IMG/VR virus record: IMGVR_UViG_3300010354_000057
Location: 1 to 64,000 of that record
DNA: 64,000 bases
Source: a virus
Direction: 5' to 3' (one strand)
Shown: piece by piece, positions 5,831 through 36,146 of the stretch
How positions within the stretch are numbered: position 1 is the stretch's first letter
Layout: the number at the start of each line of letters is the position of its first letter
Program-made: the position numbers and the translations under genes
The notes under the pieces: generated by a model
What the model was told of the DNA's origin: nothing
What the model saw: the letters and a program-made list of their open reading frames with translations, nothing else
Databases searched by the model: none

Positions 5831-5846
5831 TGTATTATATTTTACA
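5831..5846. promoter_or_regulatory. NtcA-type binding site
   Basis: TGTA-TTATATTT-TACA matches TGTA-N8-TACA, just upstream of a promoter and riboswitch-like leader. Confidence 0.65.
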
Positions 5847-5853
5847 AAAATAG

Positions 5854-5882
5854 TTGACTATATATCGTAATGGATTTAAAAT
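5854..5882 (+). promoter_or_regulatory. Sigma70-type promoter
   Basis: TTGACT-N17-TAAAAT. Confidence 0.75.
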
Positions 5883-5887
5883 GATCC

Positions 5888-6107
5888 AACGTTCATCTGG
5901 TCAACCAGACGGAAGTAAGCCGACTCGGAACGGAACGTTCATCTATGGAAGCACTATTTCTAACGTGTTTACAAGCAAATTTTCTTATTGCGAGAGTTAA
6001 TTTGCATCAGGCATTAACCATTCAGCAAAAGAATGATATTGTCTGGGAGATTAAACAAGTTACGAAAAAAGGATGTTTCATAGACGCAAAAGCCGACTGA
6101 AGGAACG
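5888..6107 (+). ncRNA. Tandem glutamine-riboswitch-like aptamers (glnA / Downstream-peptide RNA family)
   Basis: Two units CGTTCATCT..AGACG(G/C)AA..AGCCGACT..GGAACG, each with CGTTC/GAACG P1 pairing, upstream of a YRG peptide. Confidence 0.72.
5945..6100 (+). CDS. 51-aa ORF embedded in the second aptamer (MEALFLTCLQ...GCFIDAKAD)
   Basis: Hand translation; open frame from ATG 5945 to TGA 6100. Confidence 0.55.
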   Translation: MEALFLTCLQANFLIARVNLHQALTIQQKNDIVWEIKQVTKKGCFIDAKAD

Positions 6108-6140
6108 CTCTTTAACTTAAAAAACTAAGGAGAAAACCTA

Positions 6141-6302
6141 ATGTCTAAAGTTGTATATCGTGGTGTCGAATATGACACTACAGATCGTCCCAATCAAACA
6201 TTTAAAATTGAACCACATGTAGAAATCTATCGTGGATCAATGTTTTATGTTGATGAAAATGGAAATAAACTGTCTATGGAAAAAACCAGGAGGCAGAAAT
6301 GA
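6141..6302 (+). CDS. DUF4278-like small protein with two YRG motifs (53 aa)
   Basis: MSKVVYRGVEYDT...EIYRGSMF; AAGGAG RBS at 6127-6132. Confidence 0.8.
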   Translation: MSKVVYRGVEYDTTDRPNQTFKIEPHVEIYRGSMFYVDENGNKLSMEKTRRQK

Positions 6303-6400
6303 ATACATATTTTGTTCGCTATTTAAAGAAAAAAGCAAAGAAAGAAAATCTTCTTAAAATTGCACAACTGAATATGGCAAAGCAACCTCAAGTTGCTTGA
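6299..6400 (+). CDS. Small basic peptide (33 aa, MNTYFVRYLKKKAKKENLLKIAQLNMAKQPQVA)
   Basis: ATGA overlap with the upstream ORF, AGGAGG RBS, ends just before a terminator. Confidence 0.65.
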   Translation: MNTYFVRYLKKKAKKENLLKIAQLNMAKQPQVA

Positions 6401-6405
6401 TCAAC

Positions 6406-6432
6406 GGGGGGATTGACTTCCCCCCTTTTTTT
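6406..6432 (+). terminator. Intrinsic terminator
   Basis: GGGGGGA-TTGACT-TCCCCCC followed by T7. Confidence 0.88.
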
Positions 6433-6441
6433 GTGTAAAAT
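6413..6441 (+). promoter_or_regulatory. Sigma70-type promoter overlapping the terminator
   Basis: TTGACT (hairpin loop)-N17-TAAAAT. Confidence 0.7.
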
Positions 6442-34894: not shown

Positions 34895-34965
34895 GCGGGC
34901 ATGGTGTAGCGGTAACATACCATCCTTCCAAGTTGTAGTCACGGGTTCGATCCCCGTTGCCCGCT
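34895..34965 (+). tRNA. tRNA-Gly(TCC)
   Basis: GCGGGCA/TGCCCGC acceptor stem, CTTCCAA anticodon loop, GGTTCGATCC T arm. Confidence 0.9.
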
Positions 34966-36072: not shown

Positions 36073-36146
36073 GCCTTCGTAGCTCAGTTGGATAGAGCAG
36101 GGCTTTTGTAAAGCTCAGGTCGCAAGTTCAAGTCTTGTCGGGGGCT
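36073..36146 (+). tRNA. tRNA-Thr(TGT)
   Basis: GCCTTCG/CGGGGGC acceptor stem, AGCTCAG D arm, GGGCT-TTTGTAA-AGCTC anticodon arm, GTTCAAGTC T loop. Confidence 0.92.

Follow-up and report, generated by a model that had tools for sequence, protein, structure and literature searches.

A glutamine riboswitch of T4-like cyanophages, predicted to fold as two interlocked junctions, that houses a conserved phage gene in a hairpin loop

Riboswitches for glutamine are known in two classes, glutamine-I and glutamine-II; they have been linked with DUF4278/IF17 genes, have been described in cyanophages and can occur in tandem. In the glutamine-I (RF01739) leader of Synechocystis gifB/IF17, Klahn et al. (PMC6212724) describe a linchpin pair next to the helix P1, G23-C60 in the crystal form, as critical, and postulate that binding of glutamine captures the C, that an inhibitory helix then melts and that translation is turned on. 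Tandem glutamine aptamers were counted by Ames & Breaker in 2011 (157 doublets and 4 triplets, as quoted in PMC5066625 and PMC9481103). Here we analyse a leader at positions 5890-6108 of a 64,000-nucleotide stretch of viral DNA (the window; positions 1-64,000 of the IMG/VR record IMGVR_UViG_3300010354_000057, with all coordinates given as window positions and the features of the locus on the plus strand). The phage is a T4-like cyanophage with relatives in the Kyanoviridae. The leader contains two glutamine-aptamer-like units 3 nucleotides (nt) apart, and a complete open reading frame, ORF2 (5945-6100; 51 codons and a TGA), sits in the loop of the P2 arm of the second one, as the original prediction had read it. 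Comparison with related loci shows that this leader would fold as one interlocked, two-junction glutamine riboswitch and not as two independent tandem aptamers.

With the gifB/IF17 leader the phage element shares P1, the position of P2, the strands CGGAAGUA and GAAG and a G-C linchpin, together with a downstream DUF4278/IF17-like gene and an anti-Shine-Dalgarno (anti-SD) sequence that starts at the linchpin C (PMC6212724). Unlike in glutamine-I, the phage consensus is split over two units, P3 is formed between the units and carries a second junction, and the P2 loop houses a gene. The likeness to the known tandem glutamine aptamers lies in two or three aptamer-like units a few nt apart; in PMC5066625 and PMC9481103 those aptamers are described as separate and non-cooperative, and no benefit of the arrangement is named, whereas the phage doublet would be one interlocked fold. 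The pseudo-cooperative class, as outlined in PMC9481103, has an expression platform for each aptamer, an arrangement that does not apply here, where the spacer between the units measures 2-4 nt in all parsed elements. The tandem glycine riboswitch, as described in PMC5066625, also combines two homologous cores with one expression platform, but its domains dock by tertiary contacts, whereas the phage cores would exchange strands and have a helix in common. Of the phage element Rfam detects just a fragment, and nothing when both P2 loops hold genes, as in phage Syn9.

Open reading frames (ORFs) inside structured RNAs have precedents. Group I introns carry them in peripheral loops, where a long-range helix closes off an apical loop that holds an entire gene; unlike these introns, the phage element is, as far as seen, neither self-splicing nor mobile, and the RNA that hosts the gene is a ligand sensor in a 5' leader. 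With mgtL, in the Salmonella mgtA leader, translation of a short ORF and folding of the RNA overlap on the same nucleotides. A similar overlap is described for M. tuberculosis, where upstream ORFs (uORFs) lie in the glycine, cobalamin and YdaO aptamers (bioRxiv 10.1101/2022.06.01.494293). Those uORFs are short, whereas the phage loops house a whole conserved family of proteins of 49-73 amino acids (aa), with start and stop in defined aptamer strands and across hundreds of phages. Our literature search found no conserved protein family housed whole in the loops of glutamine aptamers and no cross-unit nested fold of a doublet; as to the nested fold, the literature covered did not include Ames & Breaker 2011, which may have drawn cross-unit pairing.

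At its curated thresholds Rfam reports a single Glutamine (glnA, RF01739) match in the window, on unit 1 (5888-5936; 37.6 bits against a threshold of 35), and no RF01739 match on unit 2 even at E ≤ 10. The E-loop is divided between the units. Its 5' strand belongs, with the linchpin position, to unit 1, where the GAA of a 3' strand is missing; its 3' strand belongs to unit 2, which also provides the base following P1 but in which the joining strand J2/3 is CGCAAA and not CGGAAGUA. Read across the units, by contrast, comparison points to an outer junction that would be a complete type-I (glnA) aptamer. To this junction unit 1 contributes the 5' strand of P1 (CGUUC, 5890-5894), P2 (5896-5909, a 5-bp hairpin that covaries among the ORF-less doublets described below, and the small TCTGG/CCAGA hairpin already noted in the original prediction) and, as in the Rfam alignment, J2/3 with the 5' strand of the E-loop (CGGAAGUA, 5910-5917), which includes the linchpin base G5912. 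Unit 2 contributes the 3' strand of the E-loop (GAAG, 6099-6102), the 3' strand of P1 (GAACG, 6103-6107) and the linchpin base C6108. P3 would be the duplex between 5918-5925 and 6091-6098, each strand reading AGCCGACU, and the pairs of the outer P1 (5890-5894 with 6103-6107), for which the partner is assigned from the covariation of P3 and the linchpin, are all canonical.

Related elements were collected from IMG/VR with a pattern for the 3' half (scan 1; at least 119 contigs matched) and with patterns for the junction between the units only (scans 2 and 3), which yielded, pooled, at least 250 unique two-unit elements. A scan of cellular genomes with a loose pattern gave a real doublet in 1/120 loci among the matches listed, the rest being chance matches; the real one (L360) stands on a 7-kb contig of an uncultured Prochlorococcus single-cell assembly. 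In the phage elements, the linchpin position of unit 1 was complementary to the base after P1 of unit 2 in 250/250 unique elements among the matches listed (G:C in 141, C:G in 109). In the window, G5912 would thus pair with C6108, while the linchpin positions within each unit are mismatched in most elements, being G.G and C.C in the window. The 8-mers that follow GAAGUA and precede GAAG were likewise complementary across the units, and they co-varied. A-U is replaced by C-G at one end of the helix, U-A by G-C or A-U at the opposite end and G-C by A-U inside, and these compensatory changes break the hairpins that could form within a unit. In some loci and in Syn9 the P3 strands are wholly different yet still complementary, and the 5-nt P3 strands of Syn9 can pair across the units only.

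The stop codon of the embedded gene overlaps this helix. In the isolate phage S-SRM01 (L002, 1700-1724), the change of the P3 end pair from A-U to C-G turns the TGA into GGA and lengthens the protein by 5 residues; the RNA pairing is there kept at the expense of the stop codon. P3 also contains conserved non-Watson-Crick oppositions, mostly C.A and A.C, at 5920/6096 and 5923/6093 (68/71 and 52/63 of the doublets without an ORF described below).

The two arrangements were compared on an alignment of 71 doublets that have no ORF in P2. With the nested structure, 92.1% of the cells were paired, and 0/500 shuffles reached any of the measures. The nested linchpin was paired in 71/71 (GC 44, CG 27), and the end pairs of P3 in 69/71 (AU 55, GC 9, CG 3, GU 2, other 2) and 61/62 (UA 28, GC 24, AU 9, other 1); both-sided changes occurred at 5/8 P3 pairs. 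With the side-by-side structure, the linchpins were paired in only 28/71 and 27/71 doublets and the ends of the mini-hairpins in only 27/71 and 25/62. In one such doublet (L172) the Rfam model itself treats all 91 nt as a single aptamer, placing an insert of 46 nt in P3 and scoring 42.7 bits, versus 35-37 bits for single units; in the window the gathering score is reached by unit 1 alone, the composite having an insert of 172 nt. A glnA match of 99 nt and 44.0 bits tabulated for phage S-CREM1 (PMC9964418) looks like the same case, i.e. a whole doublet aligned as one aptamer. A tree of the interior of ORF2 shows no fewer than 10 switches between the G:C and C:G classes of the linchpin, of which 3 fall on supported branches, and in every switch the two bases changed together; with 3 independent pairs on supported branches, the sign test is underpowered (p = 0.25). 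By ViennaRNA, the nested secondary structure was 3.4 kcal/mol better than the side-by-side one. A triplet was also observed (L240:6500-6830), with complementary P3 strands in its units 2 and 3 and a family-B gene (see below) in unit 2.

At the far end of P3, the comparison indicates a second, inner junction, which would be circularly permuted. It is composed of a P1 hairpin (5928-5940: GAACG 5928-5932, loop GAA 5933-5935, CGUUC 5936-5940), of the P2 helix that closes ORF2 and of the strand CGCAAA (6085-6090), in which C6087 lies opposite G5933. The two P1 strands that meet here had been described as overlapping; in the conserved register they are adjacent, separated by the 3-nt spacer, and the overlap comes from a second reading of GAACG created only by the GAA spacer of the window. 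The opposition of C6087 and G5933 is C:G in 137/145 ORF-bearing elements and in 66/71 ORF-less doublets. The pairs of the hairpin are all invariant, their assignment following from the nested model. Bases that contact the ligand have equivalents in this junction: a C:G and a G:C pair in P1, the G in the CGCA strand, and the C..G pair. In glutamine-II (RF01704), as described in PMC6698751, a CGCA strand also follows the first hairpin (6085-6088 in the window) and a C..G pair also neighbours a CGUUC:GAACG helix. There, the 5' CGUUC forms a pseudoknot with GGAACG in the loop of a 3' hairpin, whereas the inner junction of the phage has neither the pseudoknot nor the flanking P2, and its CGUUC:GAACG helix is, unlike that of glutamine-II, a simple hairpin with a 3-nt loop. 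Membership of unit 2 in glutamine-II was rejected because the pseudoknot is missing and the score too low: the RF01704 match in the window reaches 15.5 bits against a threshold of 33 and is located on unit 1.

The arm that encloses ORF2 is a long-range P2, with the 5' strand UCUAUG (5942-5947) and the 3' strand CAUAGA (6079-6084). On its 5' side ORF2 is flanked by CGTTCA-TCTATG (5936-5947), of which the last three bases (5945-5947) are the start codon, which had indeed been placed in the 5' strand of P2; on its 3' side, CATAGA-CGCAAA (6079-6090) is followed by AGCCGACT, GAAG, GAACG and C, to 6108. In the 145 ORF-bearing unit-2 elements, closing pairs 1 to 5 were kept in 145, 145, 145, 142 and 139, respectively, with covariation at pairs 3-5 (pair 3 being UA, CG or UG and pair 4 AU, CG, UA or UG). 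As a control, the 3' strand was slid by one base, which left 44, 33, 20 and 55 of 145 elements paired at positions 2-5, respectively; as pair 1 is always U-A, the slid control is uninformative there. P2 of unit 1 behaved similarly, pairs 1-5 being kept in 81, 81, 81, 69 and 80 of 81 elements. On this comparative evidence the P2 around ORF2 is a conserved, covarying 5-bp helix. The long-range stem proposed originally is thus borne out, including its covariation, with two corrections: the 6-nt strands are separated by 131 nt (5948-6078) and not by about 120, and only five of the six pairs are conserved in relatives, as neither the sixth nor the additional pairing beyond it is kept. The insert of the window is predicted to fold as a long irregular hairpin.

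ORF2 has the properties of a protein-coding gene. The same layout is present in three isolate phages, DSL-LC02, S-SRM01 and DSL-LC03 (about 72% DNA identity, many synonymous differences), in two of which the ORF is annotated as a coding sequence. In scan 1, the 5' half of the element, which is outside the scan pattern, was found 141, 144, 147 or 150 nt before the 3' half in 119/119 entries with enough upstream DNA among the matches listed (4/123 were cut off); the insert changed in length by multiples of 3 only, and an intact ORF of 50-55 aa was present in 84/85 unique segments, the exception (L101) having a premature stop, again among the matches listed. Two loci with a broken ORF2 were seen in all, L101 and L175, with 41 and 20 codons. 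Over all scans and among the matches listed, an ORF starting with ATG filled more than 80% of the insertion in 225/226 long P2 insertions, and in 226/226 the AUG stood 9-13 nt after the start of CGTTCA, i.e. in or touching the 5' strand of P2. Such regularity greatly exceeds what chance would give. The stop of ORF2 (6098-6100) lies in the conserved 3' block, in line with the earlier observation that conserved aptamer nucleotides encode the last codons and the stop. Among the matches listed, the conserved junction strand supplied the stop, as U(G/A)A, for 135/144 ORFs of unit 2, and the UAA within GAAGUAAG did so for 30/81 ORFs of unit 1.

Selection acts on the encoded protein as well. For the interior codons of ORF2, the median pairwise ratio of nonsynonymous to synonymous substitution rates (dN/dS) was 0.15 in the 50-aa group (267 pairs) and 0.28 in the 51-aa group (217 pairs), synonymous change being saturated in this comparison. 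Close relatives of the protein form 102 protein-database clusters, and two cysteines are invariant across 26 diverse members of the family. The window ORF matches phrog_504 with E 1.3e-4 (profile positions 8-52 of 53), and its embedded relatives do so with E from 2.7e-7 down to 5.2e-25. A Pfam search gave no significant family for ORF2, and in a profile search of PDB sequences the best E values were only 0.15 and 0.75. By these measures, ORF2 is a real gene under purifying selection, and the codon-level conservation that the original prediction proposed as a check is found.

The 218 unique embedded proteins fell into two BLAST clusters. Family A, to which ORF2 belongs, has 146 members, mostly in unit 2, that match phrog_504 or phrog_13397, and is present in 310 phage records. 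Family B, with N-termini that resemble signal peptides, comprises 72 members, which without exception occupy unit 1; its marine members match phrog_6471, and in other phages the P2 loop of unit 1 houses such a gene of 61-73 aa. The two families are homologous over a Cys-to-Cys core (hhalign probability 93.3%, E 2.8e-7). In Syn9, gp196 is in the first P2, gp197, the homologue of ORF2, in the second, and gp198 is the YRG-repeat protein that follows. The embedded protein family thus corresponds to phrog_504, phrog_13397 and phrog_6471 and is housed in riboswitch loops. The Syn9 element, with genes in both P2 loops, gave no Rfam Glutamine match; it is because this family lives in the loops that Rfam misses the switch in model phages. 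In scan 3, 72/109 readable new loci carried one embedded gene or more.

Directly after P1, C6108 is the first base of a predicted helix of 6-7 bp between an anti-SD sequence (6108-6113) and the strong Shine-Dalgarno (SD) sequence AAGGAG (6127-6132), which together form the putative expression platform (6108-6132). In leaders with C after P1 (class A) this base pairs into the SD in 124/137. The SD precedes a gene for a 53-aa YRG-repeat protein (6141-6302), which scores 19.9 bits with PF14105 (DUF4278), below the Pfam cut-off of 25.3 (E 9.7e-4), matches phrog_5049 (E 2e-8) and has a conserved neighbour position in related loci. Since the anti-SD helix starts at the linchpin base, this DUF4278/IF17-like gene is most plausibly the one that is regulated. 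The original prediction of a riboswitch enclosing its own regulated gene is therefore right about the enclosed gene, which is real, and probably not about the target.

Leaders of class B, mostly marine (e.g. L008, L211, L316), have a G after the P1 of unit 2 and a tail unlike that of class A. In the first freshwater class-B loci examined the tail starts with GGAC and runs on to UCUCAU, and several marine ones have an additional hairpin. Class-B leaders use an expression platform different from that of class A, and no platform common to them was found among these leaders.

These features suggest how sensing and translation might interact. Glutamine would capture C6108 in the linchpin pair with G5912; the anti-SD/SD helix would then open and translation of the DUF4278/IF17-like gene be turned on, in the way put forward for Synechocystis gifB. 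The AUG of ORF2 takes part in the pairing of P2 and lacks a clear SD, so that its initiation should require an open P2 and would take place mainly before the 3' strand of P2 is transcribed. As the ORF starts in a P2 strand and stops in core nucleotides, a translating ribosome would unfold the RNA, melting P2, P3 and the outer P1, and the folded RNA would bury the AUG. Translation of ORF2 and ligand sensing would therefore be mutually exclusive on one mRNA molecule. The footprint of a ribosome at the ORF2 stop should moreover reach or cover the anti-SD, and ORF2 translation could open the downstream SD by coupling. Taken as a whole, i.e. a nested riboswitch, exclusion between ORF2 translation and sensing, and a downstream gene turned on by glutamine, this is the account towards which we incline, by a little more than an even chance.

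A number of observations weigh against this account, or against parts of it. Doublets without an ORF, in which an ordinary short hairpin takes the place of ORF2, are frequent (52/73 readable new loci in scan 2 and 37/109 in scan 3), so the switch does not need the ORF. Two loci (L066 and L094) have a unit 2 with an ORF and no unit 1, and in the L240 triplet the first unit, the only part that Rfam calls, has no P3 partner. The P1 strands are invariant, and the choice of their partners depends on P3 and the linchpin only; the C6087:G5933 opposition of the inner junction is conserved without covariation. The unconstrained minimum free energy structure (-61.0 kcal/mol) is a third fold and not the nested one (-54.3), and energy alone therefore does not decide the fold. 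Class-B leaders show the anti-SD arrangement in only 1/107. Finally, the stems of the glutamine-II class form without ligand, according to PMC6698751, so that burial of the AUG may not depend on ligand, and tandem glutamine aptamers are reported not to bind cooperatively in vitro (PMC5066625).

We considered whether simpler views of the locus would account for the same data. The view of the original prediction and of the literature is that of two independent tandem aptamers, unit 2 being free-standing with a long P2. A CGUUC and a GAACG strand are indeed present in each unit, Rfam matches only unit 1 in the window and only unit 2 in some relatives, and reviews class tandem glutamine riboswitches as independent or pseudo-cooperative. 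Yet the linchpins and P3 ends within the units pair in well under half of the ORF-less doublets, as given above, both linchpins of the window are mismatched, each unit lacks one strand of the E-loop, and the spacer is just 2-4 nt; for unit 2 in particular, J2/3 is CGCAAA, the linchpin C.C and a P3 hairpin of its own not conserved. We consider this view very improbable. Even less credit, to the point of being negligible, is due to the idea that the ORF is untranslated and that the 131-nt insert is a structured extension of P2: the irregular hairpin predicted in the window would fit, but the frame is kept in 225/226 insertions among the matches listed, with indels in multiples of 3, dN/dS is low with synonymous change saturated, and pairing beyond pair 6 is not conserved.

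If ORF2 is a gene, it might still be a mere passenger, using the shared promoter and sitting, without regulatory role, in the only place that tolerates a large insertion, with the closing helix merely insulating the fold. The abundance of ORF-less doublets that are otherwise identical speaks for this, as do the facts that the apical loops of P2 are the only free hairpin loops of the nested fold and that homologous genes occupy either P2. Against it stand the position of the AUG, in or touching the 5' strand of P2 in 226/226 insertions, and that of the stop, within the junction in 135/144 unit-2 ORFs (both among the matches listed); S-SRM01 retained the compensatory change in P3 despite the loss of a stop codon, and the physical exclusion between ribosome and fold appears unavoidable; we regard the passenger explanation as unlikely, though it deserves to be taken seriously. 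Conversely, the ORF could be translated only to remodel the RNA, by an attenuation-like process or by coupling, the peptide itself being functionless. A ribosome terminating 8 nt before the anti-SD would free the SD, and the C-terminal residues follow from the sequence of the RNA core. Such a leader peptide is nonetheless improbable, as the amino-acid sequence is under purifying selection, the two cysteines are invariant across 26 diverse members, the protein is homologous to a second family with signal-peptide-like N-termini, and 49-73 aa is long for a leader peptide.

Returning to the nested riboswitch with exclusion between sensing and ORF2 translation, a bolder version can be drawn, in which the element is a two-pocket machine. 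An outer type-I glutamine pocket and an inner, circularly permuted type-II-like one, connected through the helix they share, would be combined with the ribosome as second effector into a reciprocal, nitrogen-dependent switch. Early co-transcriptional translation of the embedded genes would keep the sensor unfolded; after folding, glutamine would bury the embedded start codons and turn on the IF17-like gene. We hold this version as a tentative possibility, and a doubtful one. If true, phages would time their manipulation of host glutamine synthetase by a reciprocal translational switch.

The surroundings of the leader are those of a small operon. A sigma-70-like promoter (TTGACT, 17 nt, TAAAAT; 5854-5882) agrees with the consensus at 10 of 12 positions, the assignment being a consensus match only, and its predicted transcript start falls at about the first aptamer base; relatives have TATAAT about 10 nt ahead of CGTTCA. 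The -10 box lies in the loop of a short inverted repeat (5871-5886; GGAT..ATCC in the window), and many relatives have GGGG-TATAAT-..CCCC or a similar repeat around it, which could be a protein site or a 5' hairpin of read-through transcripts. Upstream of the promoter, our reading of the sequence found a GTA-N8-TAC box of the NtcA-type consensus (5832-5845), shared by DSL-LC02 and DSL-LC03, with a spacing to either -10 candidate that is not the canonical 22 nt. Behind the YRG-repeat gene, a 33-aa basic ORF (6299-6400) overlaps the preceding stop by 4 nt; it is similar to the C-terminal halves of longer YRG proteins found at other loci and also to single short ORFs that some loci have in place of the YRG gene. 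Between phages the 33-aa module seems to be variously fused, split or changed in order, and it comes first in Syn9 gp198. A predicted intrinsic terminator (6406-6432) ends the operon, and a second promoter-like site (TTGACT, 17 nt, TAAAAT; 6413-6441) overlaps its tail, ahead of the next small ORF. Elsewhere, the window has two tRNA genes (34895-34965 and 36073-36146), and a related contig has a PhotoRC-II RNA (L123:11262-11350; 64.1 bits).

Tandem glutamine aptamers have been known since 2011, and the covariation in the phage elements now provides a concrete structure that can be tested. A large cyanophage protein family, including Syn9 gp196 and gp197, is found to live inside riboswitch loops, which makes these leaders a natural system in which ribosome traffic is set against metabolite sensing on the same nucleotides. 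The finding bears both on riboswitch structure and on the nitrogen biology of phage and host: the gene downstream of this competing system is a phage homologue of the factor that inactivates the host's glutamine synthetase, and the reading of the host's nitrogen state and the translation of ORF2 probably compete on one mRNA.

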